A stretch of DNA of 64,000 nucleotides from Octopus sinensis. Lineage: Eukaryota. A model generated the notes under the pieces. It did not search any database, was not told the DNA's origin, and saw nothing but the letters and a program-made list of their open reading frames with translations. The stretch's first letter is position 1, and every line of letters starts with the position of its first letter. The stretch spans positions 78,864,001 to 78,928,000 of the forward strand of contig NC_043000.1 of assembly GCF_006345805.1 (NCBI RefSeq), written 5' to 3'. Shown one piece after another: positions 14,006-64,000 of this stretch. Made by a program: the position numbers and the translations under genes.

Positions 14006-14036
<31 letters not shown>

Positions 14037-15365: not shown

Positions 15366-15985
15366 CGAATGTATGTCTATGTATTTATACACACACACTA
15401 CACGTGTGAGCAGGTAAGTGCAAAAACAAGGTTGAGAAAATAATACTTTAAGACCAAAAGAATAATAAAATTTTATATTGAGGCTGCAAAAATTTTTACC
15501 AAGTTGTTCAATGTAACCGTTTGTCAGACAGTCGTAAGTATTCGGAATAAGAAGATAACTTGAAGTATCTGTAGTGTGCTGAATGTGAGATGCCATATCA
15601 TGTCGATATGATGTAGCCCACTACCGAATGTAGCGTATAGATGTAACGCTTAAAGGTTTTCGCGTCGGAGTACCCACTGAACATTGAAGAATCAACACCA
15701 AGAAGAAATATTATTTACATATATATATATGCGTTTGCCCGACAGGTAGTTGAAGGGACAGTTGCTCGTTTTGACAAACAACAAGCTGGTGGATTTGGTT
15801 TCAAATTTCAGGCAAGGCGATGCAAGGTCCCAACATATTTTAAAATAATGGAACATTGAAATGAGTTGAATAAACGATTTTAAAAATTAATGGGATAGTA
15901 AAAATTAAGGGCGAATATGTTCCACACAGAAAATAACAATAATAAAGGGTAAGATAAATAAATATATAATATGTATATATAAAAA

Positions 15986-17354: not shown

Positions 17355-17699
17355 TGAAGGAAGTTGGTGTGAGAGAAAAAGAGCGAGAAAAATTTCAACT
17401 GAGAGAGGAAGAGAAGAAGGGAAAAACATGATAAGGATACATGTTTGTTTGAATATACGTGTATATGTTTGACGTAGCGTTTTTAAATCTTTAAATTACG
17501 GTGGATAGGAAATGGAATAATAGAAAAATATAGTGGATGGCCATAAAGGGCAAGTCCTGTGCACATGATAAATTAGAAAGTGTGTGAAATAAGGTAAATT
17601 AGAAAAATATAAAGAATAAGGCTTTACATGTGAGTATATAAAGGTATATAGAAAGATATTCAAAATAGGTGTGGGTATGTAAATATATATATATATATA

Positions 17700-20530
17700 T
17701 ATAAGAATATTCATAAAATAAAGAAAAGAAAATATTGGTGTTGGAGATGTAGGGGCAAGCACGGTAGCGTGGGCAAGAGCAGGGCTATGAACCAGGCTGG
17801 GAGGTGGGGTTAGGGAAGAAACTGTGGACCAGGAGGTCACGCTGTTGTGGGCTCTTTGAAGGAGGGAAGGGGTAGGTTGGGAAGATGTGCGAAGTGGAGG
17901 GGACGGATAGGAGTCACCGGAAGTCTCGGAAAATGATGCGTTAGAGGGGTGTGTGGAAACGGGAGATGAGCAACGGCGGGGCAGGTGTGGGGGAGAGAGC
18001 AGAGGTACAGTCTACGGAGCATGCCTTGGCAAGGGCTATGTGGATAGTGGTGAGGAGATATTCACGAAGGACGAATTGTTGTGCCATGTGTTGAGACTGA
18101 GTCTCAAAGTCATGGTTGTTACTGCAGAGCCTGCACAGACGGAGGAATTGAGAGTAGGGAATGGAGAGCTTGATGTGAATAGGGTGGAAGGAGGAAAAGT
18201 TGAGGTATGAACATGAGTCAGTGTGTTTGTAGTGGATAGAGACAGTGAGAGAGGAGTGGTATATGCTAACCGAAATGTCGAGAAATTCGACGGAAGTGTT
18301 GGAAATAATTGAGGAGAATTCGATGACAGGCTGGAAGGATTAGACAAAAGAGACGAAGGAGTCTAGTTTTTCGCGGGAGAGTGAGGTCGCACCGACAGAG
18401 TCATCAATATAGCGACCGTATAGTTCGTGAGTGGGACCAGTGAAACGTAGCCAATGAACAAGTTCATGTAGTTGGGGCCCATTCTCGTTGCTATAGCCAC
18501 TTCCGAGAGATCTGTTGGTAAAAATCACCCGCGAACGAGAAGCAGTTGAGGGGGAGAACAAGTTCGGCCAGACGAAGGTTCGGGGTTGGGTCGAAGGTCC
18601 AGAAAGTGTTTAAGTGCAAGAAGTCCTTCGTTGTATGGGATCACCGTATATAAACCCTTGATATCAATAATGAAGAGAAGTTTAGAAGGGCCAGAAGGGA
18701 AGGAGAAAGAGTTAAAGAGACGGAACACATGTTTAGTGTAATGGATGTGGGAGGGGAGGGAAGCCACTAGGAGGCAAGGACACGATCGAAGTATTTAGAA
18801 ATAAATTCCGTGGAGCAGTTAGAGGCGGAGGCGATGGGGCAGCCAGGGTTGTTGGGCTTGTGGATTTGGGGAAGGAAGTAAATGGTGGGGTGCGTGGAGT
18901 GTAGATAATAAGGTTGGAGGTGGTGAAAGGGAGATGGGAGGAGGAAGTGAGGTCATAGATAGTGGTGGACACAGTCTCTTGGTAGTTAGGCTTGGGGTTG
19001 GAGGGCAGAGGGCAATAAAATGAGGTGCCTTGAAGTTGGCGTAGAGCTTCAACCTTGTAGAGGTCTGCGCGCTACACCACCACGGCTCCACCCTTGTCGG
19101 CCGCCTTTGTGATGATGTCTTTGCAGCTTCGAAGACATCGGAATGTCGAGAGTTCGTCCGGGGAGATGTTAAAATATTGGGGATTGCTGCGAAAGTTAAA
19201 GCGGTCCACACACGTTGGCAGATGCATGCAAAATGTTCAACTGCTTGGAACTGGCAAGGAGCTGGCGTCCAGTAGGATGGTCGGCGGCCCAGGTCAGTGA
19301 AGCAGTCCTCTTCATTAGATGCAGGTGAAGTGTTGTGGAATAGTGCATATAGCCTGATGCGACGCACAAAGCTATGGATACCAGTACGGGTCTAAAATTC
19401 GTTACTGGATAAAGTGAGGGAGATGAAATGCAGATCCTTACTGAGAAGAGAGCGCTCCGTTTCAGAGAGGGGAAGATTAGGAGGAATGGTAACAACAGAC
19501 TGAAGTCGGGAGTGGGTGGATGAGTTAGATGTGGAAGGGGTGGCGTGGCAGTAGAAAGCTGGGAGGAGAGAGAGGGAAAGTAAGTGCTTGGGGATTAGAG
19601 TAATGGAAGGGTGGGGATGAGTATGGGGGATGAGGATGAGGAAAGCGTGGGTGTAGTGGCGTCGGCTGGGGAAAATGGAGTGAGTGGAGTTTATGTTGTT
19701 TAGTGCGAGCGAGGAACTCGTGGACAAAACATGATTTACATGGCGTATGAAGCGTAGAGTGGAATGTGCAACAGAAGGTGAAAGACGGGAGGAAAAGGTG
19801 GAATAAGCGAGAAGGAGAAGGTGGTCTGGGGTGTGTATTTTAAAGAGATTAGAACGAATGGTGGCACTGATAAGGCGGTAAGAAGTAGAACAGAGTATGG
19901 GTAGGATGGCAGAAGCAGAGTGGAAAGTGGGGTGGAAATGGAGGCGGAAACCTTTGGGGATGAGGTAGGGGTGAGGGAGGTGACTGAGAAAGTAAACATG
20001 ACTACAGAAGCGTGTTTTTTTGAAAATCAGATGGGAAAGATTAATAGAAGGTTGAAAGCAATAGAAGGTGTTTCTTTAGTCGGCGGTGAAGGTTCAGGAG
20101 GAAGAATTTGTAATCGGGCATTGTGGAAAAGGAAAAAAGAAAAGAAACAATTAAGAAAAGGAGAGAGAAAGGCAAAGTAATGACGTACTGAGTATGGAAG
20201 TTTAAAAACTTGTGGATTTAGCGGTCAAGCATGGCAACTGAATAGAAAAAGTGTTTGAAAGAAGGTATCAATGAAGTGAGAAAGTGGGTAGGAATGAAGA
20301 GAGGAAGTAGGTGTCAGATGAAGAGAGGAGAAGAGGGGAGTCAGACGAAGAGAGGAGGGGGTTGAGCCCATATGACGCAAAGGAGCAAAGAGATTAATTC
20401 CTGTTCACGGCGAAGGCGGGGATCCGGATGGCTTCTGTGCAAAGACAGTCCACACAGACAGGTGTTGTAGTGAATGACCAGTAGAGCGGAAATGGCGCGA
20501 GACTGGGGTTTCATTGCCGAGTCTGCCAAA
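17700..20530 (-). mobile_element. Decayed Penelope-like retroelement (RT ORF preceded by a GIY-YIG C-terminal fragment)
   Basis: DIKGLYTVIP, YGRYIDDSVG, RRIRLYALFH, ERSLLSKDLHF; PVSRHF..GH..REQELI fragment at ~20350-20510 upstream, as in partial-tandem pLTR structure. Confidence 0.78.
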
Positions 20531-20800: not shown

Positions 20801-20862
20801 CAATACAATATAAATATAAAACAAGGTTTATATGTAGTTTTAAGATTGAACAACAATAAATA

Positions 20863-22273
20863 CTAGCAAACACACCCATCGTTTGGTCGGCTTAAGTTGC
20901 TTAGGTGGTATTTTTTCACCAAATAATTGAGCTACCAAGAAGGCTGTTGAATCGCACGACAATCTACGATTCCGATTAACCTAGGAACGGAAAATCAAAC
21001 TGAAGGGTGGTTGTTGCACTTTAATGATCATAGAACATATAAGTTTGCAAGCAATGCAAAGTAGAGCTACTGAAGTGTTTTGGAAGTAGATTACGGATAT
21101 TGACTACAAAATATAGTTATTTTACATGAAAGTGAAATTTCTTGTCAGAAACAGCCACATAAATGGTGTAATGAAATTGAAGGAAGACGTTGAAACTTCC
21201 CCTCTGCGAGTTTATTGCTTTCAACAGCAAAGGGATCTATTTTTTTCGGAGAGATAAGCTAATAAAAGCCCCTTTATTCTGTCTTCCCACATAGCCTGCG
21301 TATGAACTAACAGCGAATACTGCATAAAGTTGAATTGGTATAGAGCTTTCTGAAAGATATGTATAGCTTTCGATTGTGGAAGCAAAACTCATTTAAAGTT
21401 TGATTCTTTGGGACGAATCATATGTGATTCTTTAAAAAAAAAGGCTAGAGCAACAATGCTAAAACGTATTGGAAACAATGGACAACAGTCGAAATATAAT
21501 GAATGGGTAAATAAGCATCCTTAAAGTGAAACAACGCATTGGTATGTAAACAAAAGCATGAACAAATAAGAGAAAGGGAAGGGAGCATCACTTTTCAAGT
21601 AACTCAGAAAAGGTAAAGGTAAGTTTGCCAAAGTTTAATGCAGTTTAACTATGGAGATTAAAATTGCTTGGTACTGGATATTCATCGCGTAGAGTGTTCC
21701 TAGTCAATCTAATCACCGTGGTAGGTGAACAGTCGAAATATATAAGTAGAAAAAATCCTTTCACTTTTATAAAAATGTTTTAAAAAGTATGGAAGATCCT
21801 ACATACAAAAACACTATGTCCAGTTAGGTCCATCTATGCGGCAGCTCTGGTAAAATGTTTAGTGTATAACCATCCTTGGGATATAAGTAACGTGTGTGTA
21901 AAGTTTGGTGAAAATCGGTTGAGAATTATGGAAACGTATGTGTTCAGTGTTCCTAGTCGATTTAACCACCGTCGCTGGTGGACAGTGGAAATCAATAGAA
22001 AAAATCTTTTCACTGTTATAAAAAGATTAAAAAAGCTGATTAACGCAAATGAATAGGAATCATCTATTGTTGATTTCCCATCGCTCTAGATGCCCCAATA
22101 TAAATTTTTAAAAAGTAAAGTAGCCTATGTTCAGGTCAAGGATATGAAGCAGCTGTGTATGAAATTTTAATGAAATCGGATGAAAGATGTAGCAGTTAAA
22201 GTTTTGTACACACACACAGACACACACACACAGACACACACACACAGAAAACTTCAATGTTATATATATAAGA
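20863..22273 (-). mobile_element. Non-autonomous Helitron
   Basis: A|TCTTATATATATAA at 22273, (TG)n, imperfect hairpin and CTAG|T at 20863. Confidence 0.68.
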
Positions 22274-29443: not shown

Positions 29444-29543
29444 NNNNNNNNNNNNNNNNNNNNNNNNNNNNNNNNNNNNNNNNNNNNNNNNNNNNNNNNN
29501 NNNNNNNNNNNNNNNNNNNNNNNNNNNNNNNNNNNNNNNNNNN
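29444..29543. other. Scaffold gap (100 N)
   Basis: Run of N. Confidence 1.
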
Positions 29544-29655: not shown

Positions 29656-30190
29656 TCTCTTATTATAAAAGGCAGATTTTATCTGCCTCCCTTTGTAACT
29701 TATAGAAATCTACAATATAGGATTTCTTCAATTAAAATTTACCTAGCATTTTTAAGAATAGAATGCATCGGGTCATGCCAGGTCCAGTTTTTCAAATTTA
29801 AACTCCAATTAAGCAAAATTTACAGAAAACTCACATTCTGGTGTGTATGTCAAATGTTTTTCTTAATGTGGTTTACACCACACGCACACGCAGACACACA
29901 GTGTGCAACGAATAAAATGAAAGTAAATAGCGACAGAGTGATTTGAGGAAGACTAAACTGAAAGTATTTAAACCACTACTCAAAAAATAAAAAAACACAG
30001 CAAACAGAAACAAATAAATACATAACGATTTACTCCTCACACAATTTCTTCAATTAGATTTTTCAAAGTACTCCATTCGGTCATGCCATAATATATTTCT
30101 TTCAATTTCACCCCCAATTAAGACAAAATTCGAGAAAACTCAATATTTTAACATTTCACTCCGAAAGCATTGATGTACATGTGTGCGTGC

Positions 30191-30231
<41 letters not shown>

Positions 30232-31310
30232 ATGGGTTGTGCGACACAGAAAGTGTGGTGTGTAAGTGAAGTGCTTTTGTTAGTGTGTGTAAAGAGACAG
30301 ACAGAGTGAAAGACAGAAATAACTGAACTTTTTTTATTCACTTTTTGTAGTGAGTGACTGAGAGAGAAAAGAGAGAGAGAGGTTATGTATGTATATATGT
30401 ATGTATGGCTTCAGTGACACACGCACACAAAAACACATACCTACGTACACCTAAAGCACGCACACACACACACAAGCGGAGCGCGAACTTCAAAATTTTG
30501 GTAGTATTAATTTGCGAGCGTACTTCTAAGCGCGCGTAATTGAAAGTTTTCACTATGATATCATCACGTGCGAAAAAATTCGAAGGGTTTTGAACAATTG
30601 AGATACACATGTCACGCCTGTATTGAAACCATTGCTAAGCTGCCGTAATTGCTTAATTAAGACTTTGTTTAAATTGAAAGGGGCAAATATGTGACGAGGT
30701 TGAAAAAAAATACCCCAGAAAAAAAATGTACTGCTGGTATTTATATAATTCACTACTATTTTGCTACAATGTCATGAAAAAGAAAAAATTTAGGTATGTA
30801 AATCGAATTCGCCACCCCCTTTTCCCCGTTCGCGTTTGTGTAAAAAAAATTATTATTTAAGTTTTAAAAATTATTTACTTTGTTCAAAAAATATTAATAT
30901 TAATTAATTTTCAAGAATTATTTAATTTTATTCTGTAAAATAGTAATTAATTCATTTATCTGTAAATCCGCGAGGTTGTTACTCAGGCACCTAGAATGGT
31001 AACCTTCAACTAACACTATCTCCTCCGAGACCCTGCGGCGCAAGTTGACCAAAATTGAGAGTATGGTAGAAGAAGGGTTGCTCTTCCTTCCGTAGAACAT
31101 AAAATTCAAATCGGACCATGTTAACACCAAAAATTATTTACATCAAAAAGATGCTTTTTTCTATGAAAATCCCTATTTTTTACGATTTTTTCACTGCTGT
31201 GTCGCCACTTTTCGGTGTATTTCGACCAGAAAAATGTTCACAAAACTTTTACTTTTCAAAATTACAATTCCAGCGGGTCGAAACAAACCCGAGCAACGCG
31301 ATACTGCTAG
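29656..31310 (+). mobile_element. Non-autonomous Helitron present only in the right arm
   Basis: A|TCTCTTATTATAAAAG start; ends CCCGAGCAACGCGATACTGCTAG|T; empty (TA)n site at ~17684-17703. Confidence 0.78.
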
Positions 31311-31670
31311 TATATATATATTTACATACCCACACCTATTTTGAATATCTTTCTATATACCTTTATATACTCACATGTAAAGCCTTATTCTTTATATTTT
31401 TGTAATTTACCTTATTTCACACACTTTCTAATTTATCATGTGCACAGGACTTGCCCTTTATGGCCATCCACTATATTTTTCTATTATTCCATTTCCTATC
31501 CACCGTAATTTAAAGTTTTAAAAACGCTACGTCAAACATATACACGTATATTCAAACAAACATGTATCCTTATCATGTTTTTCCCTTCTATCTCTATTTT
31601 CCAATTTTCTTCTCTTCCTCTCTCAGTTGAAATTTTTCTCGCTCTTTTTCTCTCACACCAACTTCCTTCA

Positions 31671-32576
31671 TCTATATATATAATAGTGAAGTTGTGTGAG
31701 TGTCTGTCTCCTACGATTTAGATTCCTAACTACTCCCACATTTTGCGGTGCAGTTTAACCAAATTCGGGTACCTTATAGTCGTGATTCATATCGAGCCCT
31801 TCTGAGTATTAGCGCGCGTCTACGATGAGTCTACGATTTTAAAAATAATTTACCATAATTTTTTCCATTTTAACGCATATTTTTTCGTGTGTCGATGGCG
31901 GCGGATTTGGCGTCCATGCTCACACCTGCACCTGTGTTGCTTCTCCCCCTTCTTCCCTCCCTCGTGAAGCCGTGGGGAAGGGAGTGTAAGGAAATCAACG
32001 TCGTAAAGCGTTGTCAAGGAGACCAGCGTTCTTTTAGAACAACGACTTCATGGCTTGAAGTCGCCAAAACAGAAATCGCTAAAAAAGCTGAAACAGATCC
32101 ACAAAAACGGCAAAAACCGCCACACAGGGTAGGTTTCCTGTGCAAACAATTTGCACAACCGAATGTTTTAGTTGTTGCACAAATCTTTATATATAAAAGT
32201 GAAGTTGTGTGTCTGTCTCCTACGATTTAGATTCCTAACTACTCCCACATTTTGCGGTGCAGTTTAACCAAAACCGGGTATCTTATAGTCGTGATTCATA
32301 TCGAGCCCTTCTGGGTATTAGCGCGCGTCTACAATGAGTCTACAATTTTAAAAATAATTTACCATCATTTTTTTCCATTTTAATACATTTTTTTGCTATT
32401 ATATAAGGGAAGTAACTCTCTAAAAATGTCTACGATGAGTCAACGATTTAAAAAAATTTACTATAATTTTTTCCATTTTTAATGCATTTTTTTGCTATTT
32501 TTTGGCTATAACTCTCTAAAAATGCTTTATAGTTATTTCCCTTACAAACCCGAGCAACGCCGGGCGATACTGCTAG
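31671..32576 (+). mobile_element. Compound non-autonomous Helitron (mirror of 15986-16837)
   Basis: A|TCTATATATA start; CCCGAGCAACGCCGGG hairpin and CTAG|T end. Confidence 0.8.
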
Positions 32577-33314
32577 TTTTTATATATACATATTATATAT
32601 TTATTTATCTTACCCTTTATTATTGTTATTTTCTGTGTGGAACATATTCGCCCTTAATTTTTACTCACCCATTAAGTTTTAAAATTGTTTATTCAACTCA
32701 TTTCAATTTTCCATTATTTTAAAATATGTTGGGACCTTGCATCGCCTTGCCTGAAATTTGAAACCAAATCCACCAGCTTGTTGTTTGTCAAAACGAGCTA
32801 CTGTCCTTTCAACTACCTGTCGGGCAAACGAATATATATATATGTAAATAATATTTCTTTTTGGTGTTGATTCTTCAATGTTCAGTGGGTACTCCGACGC
32901 GAAAGCCTTTAAGCGTTACATCTATACGCTACATTCGGTAGTGGGCTACATCATATCGACATGATATGGCATCTCACATTCAGCTCACTACAGATACTTC
33001 AAGTTATCTTCTTATTCCGAATACTTACGACTGTCTGACAAACGGTTACATTGAACAACTTATTAAAAATTTTTGCAGCCTCAATATAAAATTTTATTCT
33101 TCTTTTGGTCTTAAAGTATTATTTTCTCAACCTTGTTTTTGCACTTACCTGCTCACACGTGTAGTGTGTGTGTATAAATACATAGACATACATTCGTACA
33201 TACATACATACATACATACATACATACATACATACATACATACATACATACATACATACATAACCTTAAATACCTGCCCAAAGAAATCTCTCGACACTAC
33301 CGCATTGTATTAAC

Positions 33315-34110
33315 AGATAAAAGAATGAGCATATATGAGCAGAAGACTATGCATGGATACGTTAGTAGAAAGCTCCTAGATGATAGTAACATTGATCATC
33401 ATCCAAACAGTCTAACATGAACCAACAACCGGATTACTACTTCCCGCTTTGAAGGGTATGCGTTTGCAATCCAAGAACAGGAAATATCAACGAAATACCT
33501 GATGCATAAAAGGGACAGAGAAGCAGGAAAAGCATTAAAATTAAAATGCGACAATCGATGCAGACTTTGTGGAGTTAACACCGAAGATATCAGCCACAAA
33601 ATAAGCAGGTGTCCGGAAATGTCATCACGGTGTTATCTACCGATGAGACATGATGTTGTAGCTAGGACGCCCTATAACGTATCCGTCGAAAGGATGAGCC
33701 TGGAGTCAAAGAAGCAAGAACCTACAGTATGGTGGAAGCCATAGCCACTCATAAGGCGTACTGTTGGAATGTCCCAGTGAAAATCTCAATTTAATGTGAA
33801 CACAATGGACTTGATATACTAATTTGGAATAGAGAAGTGAAACTGTGTACAGTTGTAGAAACCAGCTGCCCAGGAGATGTTAGCAAAAGGCTGAATATCA
33901 GTGAGAAAGAGAATTCCTACGCTGAACTATTGAGATATCTGCAGTTACTCTATCCAGATTACAAGTTCATATTTATACCTGTAATTATTGGGGTACTGGG
34001 ATATGTAAGACATTTCCCAAATAACAATCTTGAGAAATTAGGCTTCACAAATCCAGGAAGGAGATAGCTGATTCGAAGATTACAGATCCAATCCATCAGG
34101 AGTTAAAAAA
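33315..34110 (+). mobile_element. R4/Dong-like RLE LINE 3' fragment (mirror copy)
   Basis: Mirror of 14400-15200. Confidence 0.75.
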
Positions 34111-34511
34111 TCTGTAAAACTTTCCAGAAGTTTATCATTTAAATATATATGAGTATGTCTACATATGAAAGTATATGCAAGTATATGACATACATGAAAC
34201 AAAATATACAAATCTGTACGTATACATTTATACATACATACATACATACATATACATACATACATGCATACATACATACATACATACATACATACATACA
34301 TACATACATACATACATACATACATACAAACAAAATATCCTGTTGTTGATGTTGAAATTGGCTATAGTTTAGAAGCCGAATCTTCCTCTATTGGCAAGAC
34401 ATCTTGAAATAAAACTGAATAATGACACACATACAAATATACATACATACATACATACATACATACATACATACATACATACATACATACATACATACAT
34501 ACATACAAAAA

Positions 34512-35030: not shown

Positions 35031-35450
35031 TAGCTATAGAGGTAATATTTACTCCCACTTATACGCGGAAGTTCTGTTAGAACAAACTTTACTATGGTAG
35101 ATACCATAAGAGAAACTCTTTTATATTGCTAGCTTGGAGTTGAACCCCCACGAATTGCAACGCCAAGACTGCCGGATCACATGATTTTGACCTTCCTTTG
35201 TCTCGTCGGTGATGGACGCTCGACCGCTAGGGATAGCGTCGACTCACCTCCCCGCCAGCAATATATTGAAAATTAGTGGTTAGCCATATTTAGATGGCAA
35301 ATATACCTCACATTGTTGTACAGTTACTGTTTATACCTCGTTCAGAGATTTATTATTGCTTGTATACACTTTTTCAAGATCAGTGACGAAAAGTTACTGG
35401 AAAAAGGGTATAAATAATTGCATTGGGACTCCTTTCATCGAAAACCGGTG
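35031..35450 (+). mobile_element. 5' half of hammerhead host element (mirror copy)
   Basis: 37-nt repeat 35274-35310, TATAAATA 35409-35416, target 35434-35450. Confidence 0.65.
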
Positions 35451-44700: not shown

Positions 44701-45211
44701 ATAAGCTACAGTACCACCCATCCTTAGTGGTTAGCCATATTGAGATGGCAAATATACCTCATATATATATATATATATATATATATACTAGTATTAAAGA
44801 CCCGTCGTTGCCGAGTCATAGTGCTAGTGCATGTATATATGTGTATATATATATATGTACATATTACATGTACATCTATATATATACATCTACACATAAA
44901 ATGCAAAATTCAAAGTTATATCTTGAAATCGCTAGTGATTACAATACTCAAAATATATAACAGACTGGAATTGTTTTATTATTACCCACAAGGGGCGAAC
45001 ATAGAGGGGACAATACAACCTGATGTGGGGTCAGATATACGAATGGGTTTACAAAAAAGGCGAATTTAAAAATTTACAAAAATTACAAAGATAGAAAAAA
45101 TCGAATGGGGAACAGACCGGAAGACATTACGGATGGAGTGGGAGCGGGTTCAGCTCGGACCCCACGAGCCCCGCCTCCCTACTGATACTTTGGTTTCGTC
45201 TAGTTTTACAT

Positions 45212-48200
45212 TTATGTGGTATCATCCACTCGCAACTTTCGTGCTACATCTTTCAATCGTTCTTCGTACACTCTCTTAGTCAGGCATTTTCTCTCCAGCC
45301 TTATCTTCCTTTTCAGGTGAAAGATGAAGTAATTCATCAAACCAGGGCCGGAGATGAACTTGCCTGACCGTAAACCTTTCATTCTCGTCTTCCATATCAC
45401 CTCTTTCGCAATTGCTACTACAACGAGAAAACAATTCTTACCTTCTTTCGCGAGGAAATCTGGTGGGTCAATTTTTGTAATAGACTCAGTCGACAGCTGT
45501 ACTCTTCGTGTGCTTGACAACAGCTGTTCGGCATAAACCCACACCTCAGACACGACCGAACAATGAACAATAGCGTGTGGGACGGTTTCCCTATCCCGCT
45601 CGCATCTTGGACATATCGGACTGTCTTGGCCACCGTGCCTTGCGAGTTTATCCCGAACATGTACAGCTCCTCTGTAGCATTGCCATGCCAGAGACTTCTG
45701 GAAGTTGTCCAGTGTCTTCGGCTCGAACGTACGTCGGAACAGACTGGTTAGCTGGTTATCGTCGAGACCTAGGGTTTCCCCCAAGGTATCTTCACATTCC
45801 GCCTCTACCAACCCTCTATAGAAGAATGTGGTGGAACCTCCACCGCAGGCGTTGCCCGAGCGACGGAATAGCAGGGGAGCCTTGCGACACTCCGTGTACC
45901 ATGTGCCCAGTTTCGATCTACGATTCAGCCAGTTTTCCCATCCACCGAAACTAGTGAACTTGGGAAACATCAGTTTTGCTAGCGGAGACCACACCCGTTC
46001 ACCATCCAGGTAGAGCCACAGATGTCTTAACCTCAGCACCTGTCTGCGCATCATCAGCCAAGGCATCCCTAGCCCACCCTTTAACGGTTGTTGACAGCAA
46101 GTAGAGCGTTTCACAAGTGGTTTCCCGCCATTCCACAAGACGTAGAAGAGCTGTCTTTCCAACTTGATCAACCACGAATCAAGGCAAGGAACGACGGAAA
46201 GGCGGTAGGTGATAACCGATGCGATGAACACATTGGCTACCTCCGCCCTCCCTTTCAGGGATAGCCACCGCCAAGACCAGGTCTTGGTTACTGCAGCCAC
46301 CCTGCTCGATACCTCGCCCCAATTCTTCTCTATTTGGAGGTCTGGACCGAACCAAACCCCTAGCAACTTAATCGGACCCTCCGTCCAACGTCCCACGACG
46401 CTGTCAGGAGGCATCGACTTGCCTCTCCAGGTGCCGAGTTGCAAGCCGACTGACGATTAACTTTTGCTCCTGTCACTGTCTCGTAAACCTCTATGGCCTT
46501 GCCTACCCTCTCTAGGTGATCCATTTCGGTTACGATGATGGTGATGTCATCCGCGTGCGCTAACACTGATTTTCCACTACCTGGCTGTCTCGGGATGCCG
46601 CTCAGTTTTCGCAGTAATGGCTCAAGAGCCACCACGTACAAAAGCGGGGAGAGCGGACACCCTTGACGAACCGAGCGCTTGATGTTGAACGGCTTCGACA
46701 AGAAGCCGTTCACCCGAACTACCGAGTCGATGTTGTCGTAAATTTGGATAATCCACCTGAGGAAGCCAAGGCCCAGCCCGAACTGTGCCAGGGCAGATAC
46801 CAGGTAGCGATGTTTGACCCTATCGAATGTTTTAGATTGGTCTAAATGGACCAGTGCCCCACCCTTGCTAGAATCACTATTAAACCCCTCTATAGTGTAC
46901 CGCATAAGATGGAGATTATCCTGAATGGTTCTGCCGGGAACGGCACATGTCTGTGCCTCTCCGATCAGAACATCCGCGACACGCGCCAATCTTTTCGATA
47001 ACACTTTGGCCAAAATCTTCAACTCTGTGTTTAGCAGAGTGATGGGCCTGAAATTATCAATGCACTCCCCCTTGCTCGGGTCCTTTCTGACGTATGTCAC
47101 TACTCCCCGGCGCACAGATCTGGGTATGAACCCGTTCTGCTGCCATATCGCATAGACCTCCGCCAGTAGGTGCCCGAACAAGTCTGGCATACTCTTATAT
47201 AACCCATAGGGTAGACCATCTAAACCCGGCGCCTTGCCCGCGCCGCAGTCCGCCATCGCCTCAACCACCTCCCCAGGCGTGATTGGCCCTTCACAGCCCT
47301 CCGCATCTCGCCCCGATAAGCGCAGCAGCCCGTCGAGGAGGTCCGTAAAGGCCCTCCTCCTATCCAGTCCGCCGCCCTCACCGAAAAGCTGAGCGAAGTG
47401 CTTCTGAAAGGCCTCACACATCTCCTCGGGCTTGTTTATCAACTCACCTTGTTGGTTCGTCATAGATCGAATCGTGGCGTCGTTACCACGCTGAGCTTCC
47501 ACCACTCGGGCCCATCTCACGGCGTTGATTCCTTCACAATCCATGGCGCGTATCCTAGCCCTGACAATGCAGCCCATGTGTTTGGCCTCGAGGTGCTGGT
47601 TTAACGCCAGTCTCTTGGCCGTCACCTGAGCCACAGAGCCAGTTTTCAAGGTTTCCTCTAATTCCTTAACTAGAGTAGATTCCCTCCTAGCCTCTCTAGC
47701 CACTAATCCTATGCTATATTTAATAGACTCGAATTTGATGGCTCGCTTGAGGGCATACCACCATTTGTTATTAATGATGGCACCAGATAGCACCCTCTGA
47801 ATTATAGTCCTAATCCGGTCTCTGTACTCCTTAATCGCCAAAAGGGACGTATTAAGTTTCCAATAACCGGAGCCTCTATTTTTAACCTTATCTATGTCAA
47901 GCTTACAGGTGACCATTTTATGATCACTGTAGCTGACCAGGTAAAACTGTGGACACTTAGCTATTTTTCTGTCTACTTTTCTAATTAGTATCCTATCTAT
48001 GTATGACCTGGAAGATCCGTCGCTGTTTGACCATGTCCACAATGGAGCGTTCGGAAATTCCAACCTATAAGGATCTGCTAGCTCAAAGCGGCTTAGCAGT
48101 TCCAGGAAGCCAATGTTACCTTTTCTATCTGGACGCAAGCCAACACAATCTACATCCGCTTTGCAAATTGTGTTAAAGTCTCCTAGCACAACTAATGAAT

Positions 48201-48533
48201 GCGAAGTACCAAGAAAGTTTTCCAGTTCTCGAAAATAATCACTTTGCCCTTTTTGGTTGGGTGCGTAAATTGCAACCAATCTGATAACTTTACAGTTACT
48301 GAATGTCAAATCCATGACGACCAGCCTACCTTCTGGGTCTGAAAAAATTAACCTTTTCTCAAAAACCCGTAGCCGTCAAACAGCGGGAGTAGACCTCTTG
48401 GCCCCTCTAACCGGGTTTCTGTAGCAACAATAACATCCAAATTACGCGACCTGATATCATTAAGGAAGCGACCTTGCTTCCAGCTTGATCCCAGGCCGCG
48501 CACATTTAAACAACCAACATAAATGCAATCCAT
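45212..48533 (-). pseudogene. LINE A' ORF2 (APE-RT-zinc finger), two frame breaks
   Basis: GCLNVRGL, IYAPN, GDFN, YSDH, QGCPLSP, HADD (YADD in the left copy), CPRC. Confidence 0.92.
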
Positions 48534-48541
48534 GACTTACC

Positions 48542-49803
48542 TTATATCAGTGGTTCGACTTGTTTTTCTTCTTCTTCTTCACTTTTATTTTTTTCCCGGG
48601 CTCGTGGGGGAGTCCGACGCAGGCCCTCGTATATATATGGAGATATGTCCATTCTCAGAGGGCCCACGTCGTTAAAGAATTCGGATTTTATCCGTCCGTA
48701 ATCCTTCCGTTCTATTCTATAAACAATACAGTCTTTTGTTTTTTTAATTTTTTCCACCTTGGCCATGGCTGCCAAAACGTTAATTAGCCTGTTGTTGGCT
48801 GCCTTAATGGCCATAAATGTATTCGTCGCTTCTTTTCTCTTTTTTTTGTCTCTCTTTCTGAGGGGTGGTTTCTGTTTTCCGTTTTTTTTTTGTGATTTTT
48901 GACCACCCCCTCCTCTTTTTCCTTTTCTTCGCTGCTTGTTGTTTCTGTTGCTTCTTTAGTTTCTGTTGATTCTTTATTTTCTGTTGTTTTCTCTTCTATT
49001 TTTTCTTTTTCTGGCGGTGCTGCTTCCTGCGGTCTAGGTTGGCACTCCGCTCTCACGTGCCCCTTTTTACCGCAGCCGAAGCACCTCGGCTTTCCGCCCT
49101 CCACAAACACTATCACCATCTCCTCCTCGCTGATCCTCAATGTCTCTGGAATTTCTTCCAATGTCTGTACTTCCGTCTGTTTCACTATTGAAATGCATTG
49201 GCCTTGCCAATGCCCCTCCTCCTCTACTGTAGCCTGGAGGATATTGATTTTGTCCTCCAGGCCTAACATGACTGCCGCCACCAGGCATGTGGCGTCTGCC
49301 TCTGGGGGAATGTTTCTTATTTTGATTTTCGAGGTCCTTCTGCCTCTGTACAGGGGGAGGAGGACTATATTATCGGCTTTTAGTGGTTCAGTTGATAGCT
49401 TTTCAGGTATCTCTTCTCTCCTGAACCTCACCTTTACCGTTCCAAATTTTCTTCCACGATTTATATAAGTGATTTCCTGCCATATTGTCTTTAGGCAACT
49501 CTCAATTTTCTTTTCTTCCACTCTTTGAATGGACTTCGTTGTTGAGTTGTACGTTTTATAAATAATCCTTCTTTTTTCCATTTCCTCTATCTTACTGACG
49601 TCCGGTGTTACTGATACTTCTGTACCTTCCTTTTTCAGACCTGCTGTATATTTTTCCAGGTTGCTTCTTTCCGTATTAATTGTCTTCAGTTTCTTGCCCG
49701 CAACTTCAGAAAACTTCTTAGCTGGGGCTTCTTCTGCTTTCGGCGACACCGCCGGTGAGCTTTCTTCACCTGACACAGGTGAATAGGAGATGGGGGTATC
49801 CAT
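48542..49803 (-). pseudogene. LINE A' ORF1
   Basis: YINRGRKFGTV, KPRCFGCGKKGHVRAEC; one frameshift near 48800-48870. Confidence 0.88.
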
Positions 49804-50092
49804 CACCGAAAATGGCTTAACAAGCCTTTCAATTGGCTTTCACAAGCCTTCAGAAATTCTGGCTTCGCAAGCCTTTTGTGTAGATTTTTAAATGTGTTCC
49901 ACGCTAAATGTTCCACAATAATTCCGCCCCGGGGGGGGGGGATGAAATACGTAGCCTTCGCGTGAAGGCTAATGACAGTCTTATACAGAATACACTATAT
50001 ATCAATCAAAGTAACAGTAATTAAATTAACAAACCGGTATTAACAAAGTAGCAGCAAATGACAAAACAGACTGGCGTATAACAGACTGGAAT

Positions 50093-51829
50093 GATTTTAT
50101 TACTGTCCACAAGGGGCGAACATAAAGGGGACAATACAATCGGGGAACTTAAAATAAGAAAGCGAATGACAAGAAAAGGAAAAAATAAAAGTAATAATGA
50201 CATATGAAAGAATATTTACAATGAGATGTAAATGTCCACTCGATCCCCGGAATCAAGAGGTTACATTTTCGTCAGTTTATCACAAATATTTCACCAAATT
50301 TTTCTTTTTTTTTCCTCTCACAATTTTACACATATTCTATGATTTTTTCTACTTCTCTGAAGTCCATCACTGAATCCTCAGGCAGCCGCTCTCTCACTCG
50401 AACCTTCGTGTAAAATATTACATTTTCCCCGGCAGCTCTGAAGAACTCGGCGACTACTTCCTCGGGGATTAGAGCAGTCTCCTCCCACCGGTCGGTCATC
50501 CTGTTGACCCATACATGACACTCTGTTTTACTTGTTAAGTTATTCATTACAGGGCCGAAATGGTAGGTTACTAACTTATAGTAATAGTAATCTTGTTTCC
50601 GTCCTGCGTTTTCCTTCATCTTCCTTTTCGGGCTTACTTCTTCCTTGTTCTCCTCTCTTTGTTTCTCTCTTTCTCTCTTTTTGCCTTCTTTTCTTTCTCC
50701 TTAACTCTTTGTCTGTATTTTCTCTTGCTTTGTGTTCCTTTCCTGTATTTTCTTTTTCCTTTTGTGTACCGTCCTTTCTTTTCGTTTGATTCTGATCCCT
50801 CTCTTGTTTTTTTCCTATTGTTTCTTTTTCCTTTTTTTTTCCTGACTCTGTTTTGGTTCTATTTCTTTATTTCTTTTTCCTTCATTGACTTCTTATTTCC
50901 TTTCTCTTGTTGTTTTGTTTCCTTTTCTATGCTTTCTTTCTCATTTACAGTATTCTTCTTTTCTTCAAGTTCCTGCTCGCACTCCGCTACGAATTCATAT
51001 AACGGGCACTCTTTTTTAATGTTCCCCCTTGTCCCACACAAGTAACAGTTTGGTTTTCTCCCCTCTACAATTACGCTGAGGGTCTTTTCCTCTTCAATTT
51101 CAATTCTGTAGGCAAACCTTTCAATATCCTATTTTGTGGCCATCAGCCACAATTCTACCCCATATGCTCTCCAGTTTACCGCGTTGGACTCCTTAATTGA
51201 TTCCACCTCCACTTCCTCTTCTGCTGCTCCTAGAATAGCTGTTGCCAGCCATTCTGTTTTCACTTCTGGGGGTATATTCGGGATTTTAACCCGGACCCCT
51301 CTTCTTCCCTTGTATGAGGGCCACATTGTGAATTTTTCGGCTCTTAGTACGGTGGTAGCCAGTGAGGCCGCAATTTCCTCCGTTGCACATCTCACCTCCA
51401 CCGTACCAAATTTCTTGCCTCTACTCACGTAAGTTATTTTCCCCATTATGTCTCCCAGACATTTCTCAATTTCGTCTATCTCCATTCTTGCCAGTTTCTT
51501 CGTATTCTTGTCTTGGGTTTTATATGTCACCGTCTTGCTTTCTTTATCCTCTTTTGATTTCGCGGGGGGGGGGATTAGCTTCACGCTATCACCCTTCCTT
51601 TTGAAAATCTTTTCATATTCTTTGAGTTTCTCCTTCTCAAACAACACCTCCCTTACAATTAGCGACGGATCGTTATTTTTACCGGTGACCCCCGCGTAAG
51701 TCGCCATGATTAGAGGGTCAATTCACCTTCTTCGGAAGGTTTCCACACATGGAAGCAAACGCCTCGCGCGATATCAAATCAATTTACACAGATAAATTCA
51801 CCGTCTTGTCACAACTAAAAACACACACT
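50093..51829 (-). mobile_element. ORF1-only non-autonomous LINE D (ORF1 51707-50326, disrupted)
   Basis: YVSRGKKFGTVEV and CYLCGTRGNIKKEC; no ORF2; 3' end TTGTATTGTCCCCTTTATGTTCGCCCCTTGTGG..TAATAAAA nearly identical to A. Confidence 0.82.
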
Positions 51830-52482
51830 ATTTCTTTATTACCCACACGGGGCGACGAAGAGGGGACATTACATAACATGGGGACATAGAACATTATAAT
51901 TGAATTTATGAAGGATGATTTGTTACATGAAAAAATGATAATATGAAAGCGATGCTAAAGGCCCCATCCGTTAGCATCACTTACCTGTCCTTTGGTTTTC
52001 ACCGTCACTTGAATGTTCTTTCCCAATACGAAGACCATCCATATCCATTCTTACTCCGAAATACTCCTCCATATTTTCCACGAATTCATCGCTCATTCTT
52101 ATATCTTTCACCTCCCAATTCTCCCTTTCACACCTCACCATAAACTCATCTATTTTCTTCTTTTCAATCACAGCATACCTAGTCTCACCAACTTCATACC
52201 ATTTATACTCTTCCATTAGCCTTTTAACTTCTTTCTGTTCTGTCATAGTACAAATGTTCAGCCTGGGGTCGATTTCAATCTCTTGTCTGTCTGTATTATT
52301 TTTTTCTTTTGTTTTCTTGTTCGAGGGGAGCGGGTGGGTTCACTGTCTGCAGGGATAGGGTGGGACTCAGAGGGTGTGGGTGGTGTTGGGGTGGATTGGT
52401 GTTCTGTTATTTTCTTTTCCTCGTATTCTTCTCTTCCTCTTATTCACAGCTTCTTTCCATTCCTGTGAATTCTCTTCTACTG
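51830..52482 (-). mobile_element. 5'-truncated ORF1-only element E with A-type 3' end and 17-bp TSD
   Basis: ORF1-like tail 52246-51977; 3' TGTCCCCTCTTCGTCGCCCCGTGTGGGTAATAAA; AACTAAAAACACACACT 51813-51829 vs AACTAACAACACACACT 52483-52499. Confidence 0.7.
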
Positions 52483-53798
52483 AACTAACAACACACACTC
52501 AATGAAGACTGGCATTGGCAGCTCTTCTTTTTTCTCTACATTGTATACTTTATAGACAATAGTCTTTTCTTTTATTTTATTTTTTATTATCCATCTGGAC
52601 TATTCCGTTTCTGCACGCTAATTATATTTTTAATTTATCCCCATTCATGTGAAACCACTTATTCAAGTTCAAATCATTGATGCAATTTTATACCAATTGT
52701 TATTTTTAATTTTGCATGTTACGATTATATTATACTTTAGTTTGATTTTAATTATTACTTACTACATATAATTCAATTGTTATTATTATTTTTATTGTTA
52801 AAGTGAACGCATCTGACATAAAATAGAGAAATATTTTTGTTTCACTTTTAACACGTAATGCTGGAATAGTGAAGATATGATATTGCTATGGGCTCACTCT
52901 AGGCAAGAAGTTGGACATTTTTTTTCCCATAAAACTACATGGACCCTAAGTAAGTCATGTGTAAAATTTGAATGAAATTGGTTGTGTAGTTCTCAAGTAT
53001 TAGGGAAACACACAGACAGACAGACAGACACACACACATTCTCAGTTTTATATATATAAAGATATATACTATGGATTTCGTGATATCCAACCGGTTTTCT
53101 CTATTTAAATTAGCTTCACAAGGGACATTGTGAAGTAATCATTTCTTATGAAAAAGGAGTCTCGCTATTTTGGATACTTGAAAAGTAAGAATGAGTCTAG
53201 ATAGTGGACAAACGGAGGCAACAGGTGGCAAGGGGTACAACTAACTCTTCAGTATAATTGTTGAAATAGAAATGTGTAAGGATCAGATGGTCAAGTTTGT
53301 ATATGAAGGTGTTGTCTGTACTTTTCTATGAAGAGATTTTCCTTGTTTAGGCTTCTTGTAAGGAGATTGAATCTTTGCATTGGTATAATGGGGAAATATG
53401 AAAATTCGGTGATTTCTCTCTTGCGTATATGTCAATATGTTCGCTCGAGGCTATCTGCCCGTATTGAATGAAACAAATCTGTTCTTTATGCAGACTCATT
53501 ATATTGTTCTTCTTCAGTCTTTCCCTTGTTTGCATTATCCTGTAAATTAAAGGTAAGTCCATATTGCAATACCGTTGTCACCATTATATTGTTCTTTTTC
53601 AGTCATTTGATTGTGGCCATGCTAGTGCAAAGCCTTTAGTCGAGCAAATCGACCCCAGGAGTTATTCTTTGTAAGTCTAGTACTTATTCTATCGGTCAAG
53701 TGGTGGTTGTTGTCTGTGGCTTTATTTTTTACAAACAGGGAATCTTCACTGGATTCAGGATGTTGGTCTGCGTGCGGTTCATCAATATTTTTCAAATT

Positions 53799-54206
53799 AA
53801 GTGAAAATTTTTTCTCATTGTGAGAAGTACAGTTTGGGGACGAATCCTTCAACCAAAAGTTGTTCACTTTTTAATAGTGTGTGTTTTTACAACATTTTCC
53901 ATTTATTGGAAAGCTGTACTTCAAGTGTTCACATGAAGTGAAATTTTTTTCTCATTGTGAGAAGTACAGTTTGGGGACGAATCCTTCAACCAAAAGTTGT
54001 TCACTTTTTAATAGTGTGTGTTTTTACAACATTTTCCATTTATTGGAAAGCTGTACTTCAAGTGTTCACATGAAGTGAAATTTTTTTCTCATTGTGAGAA
54101 GTATAGTTTGGTAACGTATCCTACCACCAAAAGTTGTCTGCTGTTTGTAAATAGAGTGTATTTTTAAAAGTACGTTTACCAATAATTGGAAAGCTGTATT
54201 TCAAGT
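53799..54206. repeat. Tandem repeat, ~137-bp unit, 3 copies
   Basis: AAGTGAAA.TTTTTTCTCATTGTGAGAAGTA recurs at ~53799, 53936 and 54073. Confidence 0.9.
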
Positions 54207-55669
54207 GGAGCAGTCCAGGTTCTAATCGGAGCACCATAGGGCTTGGAGTACCTGAATGCCCAGAAAATTTTTTGCTGTGTTTTGTTGAACTGTTGTTTTC
54301 TTCTTCTATTGGGACTTTCTTATTGAACTGTTTGCTTTTTCTCTTCTTCCCTTTTATTTCCTTTTGATTTCTCTCTTTTCTTTGAGGGTAAAGAAATTTT
54401 GTTTCTTCCCACTTATTGTAGGAAAAAATTGACGAGTGCTTCGGTCTCTTGTTTACCACCTAGTGGATAGAGGATACACTTTGTCGGGGTCTGTGTGGCA
54501 CACGGAGCCAGGTTCCTCAATGTGAAATTCTTTCTGCGGCTGATTGGGTTGGGTCAAAAGCTGTTTTGACCCAGTGGATCCAATCAGCCATGAATCTTGT
54601 TATGCCATATTTTATATAAATGGCCGTGTGCAGGTACCCGGTGATTCTTGAGGGTCGCCACCCTCCAGGTGCCATAGGTGCCTGGAGCCTGACCATATAA
54701 AGAAAAACTTCCTCGGGTACAAAGCAATGTCCTGGAGCAGTTGATTGAGACCTCTGTAGAAGAAGGAGCGAAGGCGGCCAAGGAAACGGAGGACTTCTCA
54801 AACAAGGGCCTCAAGAGGAAGGAGGTGAGCAACAATGGGTGTTCACCGAAGGATCCTAGGGATGAGGGAGGGGACGCGAATCTCCCGGTCATAGAGGAGA
54901 TACATCCTCCCTCAGTTGAGAGAAAAGCAAGACGAAGAGGAAGAGAAACGGGACGTGTAGCCGGCAGTCTGTGACATAGCACCGGAATGTCCTGGAAACT
55001 TGCCGGTATGGGTTGTGCCACCGGCAGGGGAAGAGACACCGTTGGGGGGAATTGTGCTGCCAATGGTAGAATTGACTGCCTCGAACCCGGAGAGAAAGGA
55101 ACTATCGGTTTTCTTCTACAAAGGCGGAGAGGTACAAGAGGTTGTGGAAAAGCACCATAAGGGAGTACCTTCACACAGATTCCCGAATGGCCTCCGCAGA
55201 TAACTGTGGAGGTCATAAAGTTGCCCGTGACGTATAGACTGCAGGGACTCAATGAGGAATAACGCTTGTGGCCGGGCGATGCCGACTCGGATCCTACCTT
55301 GGTCTTGAATGAGGCGTGGGTGATGGCGGAGTAAACGGGCACAAGCGATGTTGGGGAGGAATAGTGACAAGAGGTTGAAAAGCATCAGTGTTATATGTTT
55401 ATTGCATGCTGTTGTGTTTAAAAAGGTTAACGCTCCAATTCTTAAATGGACTATTAGTCCCAAAATTGTAAAACTCTAGTAAAAGGTTCATTACCTTGTT
55501 TTCTCTTTTTCTGTGAAAAAAGAAGGGAATAATGTTTTAGAGAAGCAAAAATCGGTGGGCGTGATTTCTTTTCTCCCATTAAAATCATCCTTTTCATCAT
55601 TCACCTCATCAATGTCTTTGTCCAGCCTTAAAGCTGCTCTGTATCGTGCTTATATGGCAAACTTTTTTG

Positions 55670-61623: not shown

Positions 61624-61744
61624 GTGTATGTCTGTATGTCTGTATGTATGTGAGGAATTACTTTAGAATATACATATTCATTTACAGTAGTTAACTCTTC
61701 TGTGGTTAATTGATATAATTATCAGTTGATGTTTTCCTTTACAG

Positions 61745-63561
61745 ACGAATGTACACATAATGGAAAGAGGTATGGAGGAAGATTCAAGATCGACTGCAAC
61801 ACGTGTGTATGTGGTGAATATGGCAAAGCAGTCTGTACAAATTTGCGTTGTGATTACGGGCAGGAATCTACTTGTATCTATCAAGGTAGACGTTACAGAT
61901 TAGGAGAGACATTCCAGCAATCCTGTAATACCTGTGAATGCAAACACGGTGGTCAGGTACAATGTAGCAACAAAGACTGCACGAAACGATGTACTTACAA
62001 CGGAAAGGTATACCAAGAGGGTGAAGAATTCCAAGACAAATGTAATAGATGTAAATGTCTTTCTTCTGGCTATATTCAGTGTACTAATAACGTGTGTCAG
62101 TGCCAGTATAATGGTAAAGACTACGACGTTGGAGTGAGTTTCAATGATGGTTGTAAGACTTGCACCTGTCAAACTACAGGAACAGTGCAGTGTAACAGTG
62201 ATAGATGTGGCTGTTATTACAAAAAATCACAATATCAAGAGGGTCAAACTCTCACCGACGCTTGCAACACTTGCCGTTGTATAAACGGACAAGTAGATTG
62301 TACAACAAGAGTCTGTCAATGTACTTACCAAGGACGGACCTATAATATTGGCCAAAGATTTGGTGAATGTGATGAATGTCAATGTTTGTTTAGTGGTACA
62401 GTCCAGTGTTCTAACAAGCGATGCAAATGCATTTATAACGGAAATACCTACCGAATTGGAGAAACATTTCCAAACGGCTGCAATACATGCACGTGTAAAA
62501 TTGATGGTAGTGTAGACTGCACTACAAATCCATGTACCTGTACATACAAACACAGGGTTTATAATATGGGACAGACATTCACTGATGACTGTAATACTTG
62601 TACATGCCAACATAACGGTCAAGTTGCGTGCACACATAGAATGTGCAAATGTAGTTATAACAACCAGTTTTATAATATAGGTCAAACATTTAGAAAGGGG
62701 TGTAATACGTGCACATGCCAAGCCGATGGTACCGTAGACTGCACTACAAATCCATGTACCTGTACTTACAATCATAAAGTTTATAATATCGGACAGGCAT
62801 TCACTGATGACTGTAACACTTGTACATGTCAGCATAACGGACAAGTAGAGTGCACATATAAAACGTGTCGATGTACACGGAAAGGACGGTCTTATAAAAT
62901 TGGTCAGACATTTCACGAAGATTGTAACCAATGCCAATGTTTATCAACTGGATATGTTCAATGTACAACCAAAGTTTGCAAATGTACTTACAACAACCAG
63001 CTTTATAATGTAGGTCAAACATTTAGACAAGGTTGTAATACATGTACGTGTGAAGTGAACGGTAGAGTCAGCTGTACTAATAACCCTTGTAATTGCTTAT
63101 ACAATGGAAACACATACGGAATAGGGGATTCATTTAGAAAGGATTGTAACAAGTGCACATGCAAAGCCGATGGTACTGTAGACTGCACTACAAATCTATG
63201 TACCTGCAATTACAACGGCAAGCATTACGACATTGGTTCTATATGGTATAATGATTGCAACAAATGTCAGTGCACTTCTGAGGGAAGGGTGGTTTGTGAA
63301 CAGAATACATGCACGAAACCCTGTATACACAAAGGAAAAACCTATTCTGCTGGCGAAACATTTAAAGATGACTGCAACACCTGTACATGCGGACAGTTTG
63401 GTCAAGTATCCTGTACTAAAATGTACTGTCCCCCAACTACATGCCAATATTATGGGAAAACTATCCCAGATGGAAAAACATTTATGACTCAAGATAGATG
63501 CAATGTTTGTCGATGTTCAAATGGAAATGTCAAGTGTACCAAATACGATTGTTATAAAGAG
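61745..63561 (+). CDS. Exon 2 of a secreted protein with 16 tandem six-Cys VWC-half/pacifastin-like repeats (kielin/chordin-like); gene probably continues past the window
   Basis: Acceptor TTTTCCTTTACAG at 61744; open 1.8-kb frame of C-x-Y-x5-G-x2-F-x3-CN-x-C-x-C-x3-G-x-V-x-CT-x3-C-type units; donor GAG|GTGAGT at 63561. Confidence 0.92.
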
Positions 63562-64000
63562 GTGAGTAAAGTTTTCTATTAGTTTTGATCTCCCTAATAT
63601 AACGTGTCTCATCCTTATATAGTTAGTCATTGTAAACAGAGAAAACAACAAAGAATTGAATAATGTTTAGCATAAACATTGCAATGCTCTCACTGCACTA
63701 CACTCTACTACATTGTCGTACAAACAAAATTGTATCAGCGATTCGATTTCTGTCTTTATTTGAAGTAGTTCAATTTCATTGACCCTACCATTATCTTGAA
63801 GAAAGCCAATGTTCTCTTCATTGTAAACACGAGATTTTGTATATCTGCATATATTCATCATGTATATGAAAATTATTAACTTTCAACGTTTCAACTAACT
63901 TTATTGCTACTCTTGTGAAATCAACAGACTAGCTTTCACATTGAATCATCATTGTAAGTAGAATTGCGATACAGAATTGTAAATTTGCTATATATTATCT

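Follow-up and report, generated by a model that had tools for sequence, protein, structure and literature searches.

A Tx1-type LINE and two passenger-like elements nested between Helitron-like ends at one locus of Octopus sinensis

A stretch of 64,000 nucleotides from Octopus sinensis (NCBI RefSeq assembly GCF_006345805.1, contig NC_043000.1, positions 78,864,001 to 78,928,000 of the forward strand), here called the window and used for all coordinates below, is repeat-rich animal DNA that contains, between positions 44788 and 53062, a nest of three elements enclosed by ends of the Helitron kind. One of these, A', is a long interspersed nuclear element (LINE) of the L1/Tx1 type; the other two, D and E, carry no trace of the second open reading frame (ORF2) of such elements. 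The explanation that we favor, and hold to be somewhat better than an even bet, is that a LINE lineage, A, used target-primed reverse transcription at a preferred site of a non-autonomous Helitron to insert its own copy A' and, in trans, D, that E then entered D, and that the locus was subsequently duplicated. Read on the minus strand from 53062, the order is a Helitron-like arm, a target-like motif, and six bases, then E between two copies of a 17-bp repeat, the body of D, and A' between two copies of a 16-bp target, followed by a 168-bp arm and a TA run. A first-pass annotation of this DNA had described three A-lineage elements stacked at one site, head to tail on the minus strand. The strand and arrangement were borne out for A', D, and E, while the common lineage was not: D has an ORF1 only, 35.6% identical to that of A', and E has a short ORF. 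The nest is thus simpler than first read, with one independent locus and no carriage by the Helitron, and also richer, with two passengers lacking ORF2, one inside the other.

A' (44972-50076, minus strand; 5105 bp) has its ORF1 at 49803-48542 and its ORF2 at 48533-45212. The latter encodes an apurinic/apyrimidinic-type (APE) endonuclease (EN), a reverse transcriptase (RT), and a C-terminal zinc motif (Pfam Exo_endo_phos, RVT_1, and zf-RVT); among solved structures the closest relative is human L1 ORF2p (E 1.4e-46), with R2 far behind. The copy is defective, with frameshifts, a short deletion in EN, and an altered RT core motif. With respect to a type I ORF1, a CCHC motif is visible in the translation, and an RNA recognition motif (RRM) appeared as an Atlas lead only, through CCHC/RRM/ZCCHC3-like clusters at 0.87-0.90. 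The window contains two further LINEs, B and C. In a FastTree tree of 31 sequences, built from search hits of at least 1080 aa and four cephalopod-like ones with no named Tx1 reference family among them, A', B, and C' group in a single clade (support 0.996). The nearest named sequences in this tree came from Argonauta hians. Named relatives of the window's proteins came from Argonauta hians and a cuttlefish, with 3 named cephalopod matches among the 120 listed, and from Octopus vulgaris.

The perfect 16-bp target-site duplication (TSD) originally described for A' was recovered, the 16-mer occurring without mismatch at 50092-50077 and at 44971-44956 (both minus strand). The copy at 50077-50092 is common to two elements, lying on the 3' side of D and on the 5' side of A', while that at 44956-44971 is on the 3' side of A'. 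D and A' are different elements whose ends fall at one and the same position of this 16-mer. A third copy, with one mismatch, lies at 2258-2273 in the duplicated locus, and elsewhere in the window there is one other site within three mismatches. The first bases of A' are also target-like: the element opens on a partial repeat of its target motif (50068-50076, minus strand), such as read-through at the 5' end or template jumping would leave. The target was also considered as an RNA gene and rejected as such, with no Rfam match at gathering score in the entire window.

At the upstream edge of the nest, the partial target match noted in the first-pass annotation was confirmed, the 10-mer at 52515-52506 agreeing at 9 of 10 positions (as good a match arose in 18 of 1000 dinucleotide-shuffled arms). 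Extended to 52506-52517 (minus strand), the motif matches the 3' junction of A' at 11 of 12 positions; when the arm was shuffled 1000 times, this score came up twice with dinucleotide shuffling and never with block shuffling (also 1000 times). It may be a short left target copy of D or, because A' too begins with a target-like stretch, the 5' end of D itself. The six bases that follow (52500-52505, minus strand), situated between this motif and the first E repeat, would be the true 5' end of D, severed by E. E itself has a flanking repeat that had previously been missed, a 17-bp direct repeat with a left copy at 52483-52499 and a right copy, differing by one mismatch, at 51813-51829 (both minus strand). 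It is unique in the window at up to two mismatches, and 0 of 200 shuffles gave a flanking repeat exceeding 14 bp. No copy of the A-type target is present between E and D. The stacking at one site first proposed for all three elements consequently holds for D and A' alone, and E inserted 6 bp inside the presumed 5' end of D.

The body of D (50093-51812, minus strand) consists of a 5' untranslated region of about 100 nt, an ORF1 (51707-50326), and a 233-nt 3' region that includes an A-like tail. The ORF1, disrupted by a stop and frameshifts, comprises an RNA-binding core, a CCHC knuckle, a Lys/Glu linker, and a C-terminal domain. Neither tblastn nor blastn detected EN, RT, or any other part of an ORF2 in D, and only the 233 nt separate the ORF1 stop from the 3' end. 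The core of its ORF1 is 35.6% identical to that of A', 32.0% to B', and 32.7% to C', while the corresponding values are 37.6% for A' and B', 39.4% for A' and C', and 65.2% for B' and C'. By protein D does not belong to the A lineage, since B and C are at least as close to A' as D is. The tails gave a different picture. In the last 50 nt, A' and D are 84% identical, A' and E 80%, and D and E 72%, with the remaining seven pairs at 60-68%; the D and E tails are thus nearer to A' than those of any B/C pair, despite the 65% ORF1 and 74% ORF2 identity between B and C. Upstream of this shared tail the 3' regions have no significant similarity, D having none to A' in the preceding 150 nt, and the resemblance between its 5' region (with E removed) and the 5' end of A' is weak, 28 of 1000 shuffles being as good. 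When otherwise unrelated elements have a tail in common, this is usually the sign of a passenger moved in trans (PMC5786205). With no EN or RT and yet an A-like 3' tail, both D and E are candidate passengers of the A enzyme, and D, as judged from its sequence, looks like an ORF1-only one.

Non-autonomous LINEs that retain ORF1 include HAL1 (L1), HeT-A (Jockey), and Ag-Sponge (CR1) (PMC5786205, PMC5753468). D is like these in having an ORF1 without an ORF2 and in keeping the 3' end of an autonomous LINE, here that of its presumed partner. Unlike HAL1-type elements, its ORF1 is 36% identical to that of the presumed partner, so it is no simple internal deletion of A. No Tx1 case is among those listed in one of these papers (PMC5786205). 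Outside the window, evidence on both D and E consists of proteins only, taken from spliced gene predictions, so that adjacency in DNA is read from them indirectly. For the D ORF1, one relative was found among 1825 longer candidates, the Octopus vulgaris protein XP_036361568.1 (P0121), whose core is 89.7-91% identical, which terminates at the same residue as the D ORF1, and in which the CCHC motif was scored.

E (51830-52482, minus strand; 653 bp) has an ORF1-linker-like remnant, an 89-aa ORF (52246-51977), and a 147-nt 3' region that terminates in an A-like tail. No EN or RT was found in it, tblastn and blastn giving no match to ORF2. Its ORF had no detectable match in A', B, C, or D, and in a comparison with the C-terminal parts of the ORF1 of these four, no pair involving E or D passed the shuffle filter. 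The predicted fold had a predicted local distance difference test (pLDDT) score of 51 with no PDB match at E 0.001; Atlas gave no usable match, and Pfam a sub-threshold one to Ephrin only. Ten matches were found among 155 longer candidates, all ten labelled O. vulgaris and 82-95% identical. In four of these, E ORFs occur in series, two or three per protein, and two (P0128 and P0131) continue from E into a D-type ORF1, which in P0131 is of another subfamily (75.6% to D). Series of E ORFs, and E placed ahead of D, thus recur in O. vulgaris predicted proteins. A representative library gave 31 E matches, 25 of them new and one spurious (P0155). By tblastn against the window, none of 35 distinct E matches had an A- or D-type ORF1 core ahead of the E ORF. 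On the evidence of these predicted proteins, E is a multicopy family in Octopus vulgaris gene predictions. The end of the E ORF (51977-51990, minus strand) is also a strong splice donor, and many O. vulgaris gene models start with an E ORF spliced to unrelated exons; such models are probably repeat-derived.

The nest is bounded by the two Helitron ends originally described, A|TC at 53062 and hairpin-CTAG|T at 44788. HLE1 Helitrons begin with TC, end with a hairpin and CTRR, and insert between A and T without duplication (PMC11417382). The left arm (52516-53062, minus strand; 547 bp) is of the non-autonomous HLE1 type, AT-rich with a microsatellite near its start and no long ORF (the longest stop-free stretch is 54 aa), and its TC at 53062 follows an A in a TA tract. 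The right arm (44788-44955, minus strand; 168 bp) ends in a hairpin (44817-44799) and CTAG (44791-44788), followed by a T in a TA tract. The ends agree with this description of HLE1 elements and, as in the non-autonomous ones, there is no RepHel, although the hairpin is imperfect and weak (PMC11417382). The ends also lie between A and T without duplication, but in the TA tracts around both of them this follows automatically. Over 91 nt, positions 25-105 of the left arm share 72.5% identity with the start of another Helitron in the window (22244-22154), partly through microsatellite. The two arms are oriented toward each other in the correct order, no second Helitron end occurs between them in the window, and the outer flanks on both sides are TA runs, as a single insertion predicts. 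They would thus be parts of one Helitron, with a usual non-autonomous length of about 725 bp. No empty copy of it was found within the 64-kb window. A 22-mer of the right arm and a 25-mer of the left had no matches in GTDB genomes, a non-animal collection, and the left arm had none in plasmid or phage collections, which are likewise non-animal and have no bearing on octopus copies. Other non-autonomous Helitron-like elements lie at 15974-17354 (minus), 31283-32577 (plus), 20822-22273 (minus), and 29656-31311 (plus), some of them in tandem; the element at 29656 has a 5' end unlike the one in the tandem family but shares its type of 3' end.

Self-comparison showed that positions 1-17807 of the window are an inverted duplicate of 47356-29544, at approximately 85-99% identity overall and at least 95% across the LINE-bearing part. 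Divergence between the halves is 1.3-3.1% for A, 2.4% for the right arm, 1.9% for B, 1.8% for C, and 1.5-1.8% for plain flank. The A element and right arm at 1-2439 (plus strand) are the same locus copied through this large inverted duplication, and because of it the pairs A/A', B/B', and C/C' represent one event each. A (1-2439) was accordingly rejected as a second independent flank, being a duplicate whose copy includes more than 15 kb of flank past the Helitron end. The duplication may be real or an artefact of assembly, the latter because a gap of Ns (29444-29543) lies between the duplicate halves. Smaller inverted pairs are found inside the duplication region (23762-23878/24311-24195 and 25651-27041/29116-27721).

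The sequence of events that we favor would start with a short non-autonomous Helitron, of about 725 bp if the arms are one element, inserted in a TA tract. Lineage A, of the Tx1/L1 clade, would have inserted DNA at one internal site of it on two occasions by target-primed reverse transcription. One of these would have given the full-length copy A' of the lineage itself, the other, acting in trans, D, a passenger that has only an ORF1, from an older ORF1 lineage, and an A-type 3' tail. As each insertion re-creates the target, a stack of D and A' with one 16-bp copy between them could arise in either order. E, a shorter passenger with an A-like tail, would have entered D at its 5' end and generated a separate 17-bp duplication, and the entire locus would later have been copied with its flanks by inverted duplication (or doubled through assembly). 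This account implies that the two arms belong to one Helitron, that A prefers this site genome-wide, that the A ORF2 protein moved D and E, and that E prefers D as its site, all of which we infer; what is seen directly are the ends, the flanking repeats, what each element encodes, the likeness of the tails, and the duplication of the locus. In its favor, the B/C nest has the same target-element-target pattern in clean form.

A number of observations weigh against this account. There is one independent insertion locus for this nest. On its left side D has a target copy of no more than 7-12 bp, which is possibly D's own 5' end. If A's enzyme moved both D and E it is not strictly specific, because the two use different sites. 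The joins of E to D are known from spliced gene predictions without DNA context, and none of the 25 further E matches contained a D or A ORF1. The right-arm hairpin (-3.4 kcal/mol, z -1.44) is matched by 14 of 200 shuffles. In addition, a 12-codon ORF1-like stretch at 52540-52575 (minus strand), 25-60 bp upstream of the nest edge, has 9 of 12 residues identical to the B' ORF1, five of those through different codons; none of 1000 shuffles reached its score (best of five queries). The inner left arm may therefore be LINE-derived, a captured or inserted scrap inside or in place of a Helitron arm. Capture, an older insertion, and chance are all options for the origin of this stretch. Lastly, as detailed below, the endonuclease loop does not explain the difference in sites between A and B/C.

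The B/C nest has the pattern target-C-target-B-target on a different, 17-bp motif, with three copies surrounding C and B and two in the duplicate. Its host (2457-2690 and 13045-13222, minus strand; 35273-35450, plus strand) is a partial tandem repeat whose unit measures about 354 bp and has a 41-bp terminal repeat, together with a type I hammerhead-like core. The core, at 2662 (minus strand) with a helix II and a palindromic helix III, lies directly 3' of the B/C insertion site, 12 bp from it. Rfam did not score a hammerhead in this host, and a scan by E-value gave two chance-level bacterial matches. The host is similar to metazoan retrozymes or Penelope-type repeats (PMC7229834), for which a type I hammerhead in tandem units of 150-450 bp is characteristic. 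A Tx1-type LINE inside a putatively ribozyme-bearing repeat may be of interest in its own right. In the second copy, at 44701-44703, the 3' end of B' and most of the right part of the host are deleted, a loss that corresponds to 2518-3802 of the first copy and takes in the hammerhead-like core.

The ORF2 of A is 53-55% identical to those of B and C, which are 74% identical to each other, and given the single clade of A', B, and C', different sites in sister lineages are a fair reading. The first-pass annotation had suggested comparing the APE specificity loops of A and B/C. The EN bB6-bB5 hairpin, placed by alignment with human L1, has nine residues in A', B, and C', with A' differing from each of the others at two of nine positions. 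With loops so nearly the same, the hairpin is not supported as the cause of the site difference. The A', B, and C' loops match human L1 EN in length, while that of Xenopus Tx1L has 11 residues with an RDGH tip, and grafting the Tx1L loop is reported not to have transferred its specificity (PMC1950540). A more ambitious interpretation is that sister Tx1 lineages have divided mobile-element hosts among themselves, A taking a Helitron and B/C a place next to the hammerhead of a Penelope-like repeat, with hardly any alteration of the endonuclease loop, and that D and E are protein-coding passenger families with tails borrowed from A, riding on the A enzyme, E being specialized on the 5' end of D. 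We regard this as a minority view, at about one chance in four; if true, site choice would be set by something other than the loop, such as ORF1, the RNA ends, or tail-target pairing.

We give similarly limited credence to a chance pile-up, in which each Helitron end was left by a separate element, a fragment of an older Tx1 ORF1 makes up the inner left arm, the shared 16-mer reflects a single insertion at the end of another LINE, and the preference of A is weak. The window does contain several other Helitron ends, and one type of 3' end pairs with two 5' ends. The ORF1-like stretch in the left arm, the automatic A|T rule in TA tracts, and the lack of an empty copy in the window or in the non-animal collections are also in keeping with it. 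On the other hand, a target-like motif matching at 11 of 12 positions only 6 bp from the nest edge is not expected from a pile-up, nor are arms in the right order and of usual total length, with no Helitron end between them and TA runs outside.

Alternatively, D and E could each be a lone copy, produced by deletion or truncation, of an autonomous Tx1 family not seen in this window, which we judge improbable. One DNA copy of each was seen, E begins in the middle of ORF1-like sequence as a 5'-truncated copy would, and the protein matches have no genomic context. However, in two unrelated elements the ORF stop leads directly to a short 3' region without a trace of ORF2, the 35 distinct E matches had no A/D-type ORF1 core ahead of E, and the tails match A' when the ORF1 does not. 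Least probable of all, and in our estimation decidedly unlikely, are three A-lineage LINEs at one Helitron site that the loaded Helitron could move by rolling circle, as first proposed: the Helitron ends and the A' duplication are real, and the E-D adjacency in 2 of 10 predicted proteins would also be expected from co-mobilization, but E occupies a separate site with a separate duplication, neither D nor E belongs to the A lineage by protein, and the D partner in P0131 is of another subfamily, which fits independent events better than a copied composite. No evidence of rolling-circle carriage was found, the sole second copy having more than 15 kb of flank past the Helitron end.

The favored account of A-lineage insertion in a Helitron has close precedents. 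In a study of crocodilian genomes, Tx1 families are described that enter piggyBac, Mariner, Harbinger, and long terminal repeat (LTR) elements, and related families differ in target (PMC4494074). The first-pass annotation had inferred target switching among neighboring Tx1 lineages; the A-type site and host do differ from those of B/C, but such switching has already been published (PMC4494074). The crocodilian cases are Tx1-Mar and SINEU in Mariner-N4_AMi, where tandem copies sandwich a TSD, Tx1-9_AMi in Harbinger, and Tx1-8_Crp and Tx1-4_AMi in LTR elements (PMC4494074). Like these, the octopus nest combines a Tx1-type LINE and non-autonomous passengers in a non-autonomous DNA transposon, with a 16-bp duplication, tandem copies around one duplication, and neighboring families with other hosts. 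It is unlike them in that the host is Helitron-like and E sits in another passenger, and in that D and E encode protein (an ORF1 or a short ORF) whereas the crocodilian passengers have small nuclear RNA heads (PMC4494074). Hitchhiking was tested and rejected in the crocodilian case, and a family was called target-specific when more than 20% of its flanks were of one kind; that preference was measured on hundreds of copies, while the octopus nest stands on one locus (PMC4494074). The nest also resembles Xenopus Tx1L in Tx1D, a non-autonomous piggyBac, with an APE-type LINE at a fixed site in a non-autonomous DNA transposon, although the host class differs (PMC4494074).

As it stands, the nest is one locus of a known phenomenon, and it probably adds a further case to the other mobile elements that Tx1-type LINEs are known to enter, although targeting could not be proved from a single locus. 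The word Helitron does not occur in the main text of the crocodilian study (PMC4494074). No Tx1 or other LINE targeting Helitrons was found in the literature, within a scope that left out Repbase Reports and most subscription journals, and in the same scope, covering titles and abstract openings, neither ORF1-only Tx1 passengers nor octopus Tx1 targets were found. A 2026 repeat annotation of O. vulgaris lists 80 L1-Tx1 families and 84 Helitron families, and the words target and nested do not occur in its main text (PMC13282606). Should the preference be genome-wide, Helitrons and a hammerhead repeat would join the hosts of target-choosing Tx1 LINEs, and a trio of enzymes that are 53-74% identical would have different 16-17 bp sites but near-identical hairpin loops, useful for asking what sets the specificity of APE-type LINEs. 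With D and E, passengers that encode only ORF1 would be known from this clade as well, and the effect of a passenger's protein on the site would become testable.

Several other features were seen in the window. A single 622-codon open frame at 61714-63582 (plus strand) has about 14 VWC/pacifastin-like cysteine repeats and is probably a host gene exon. Decayed retroelement-like fragments lie at 17900-20400 (minus strand), at 54200-55400, and at 14350-15250 and 33263-34162; the last two, which form a pair, gave weak zf-RVT matches, and the others none. Upstream of the Helitron 5' end, a 137-bp tandem repeat is present in three copies at 53791-54207.

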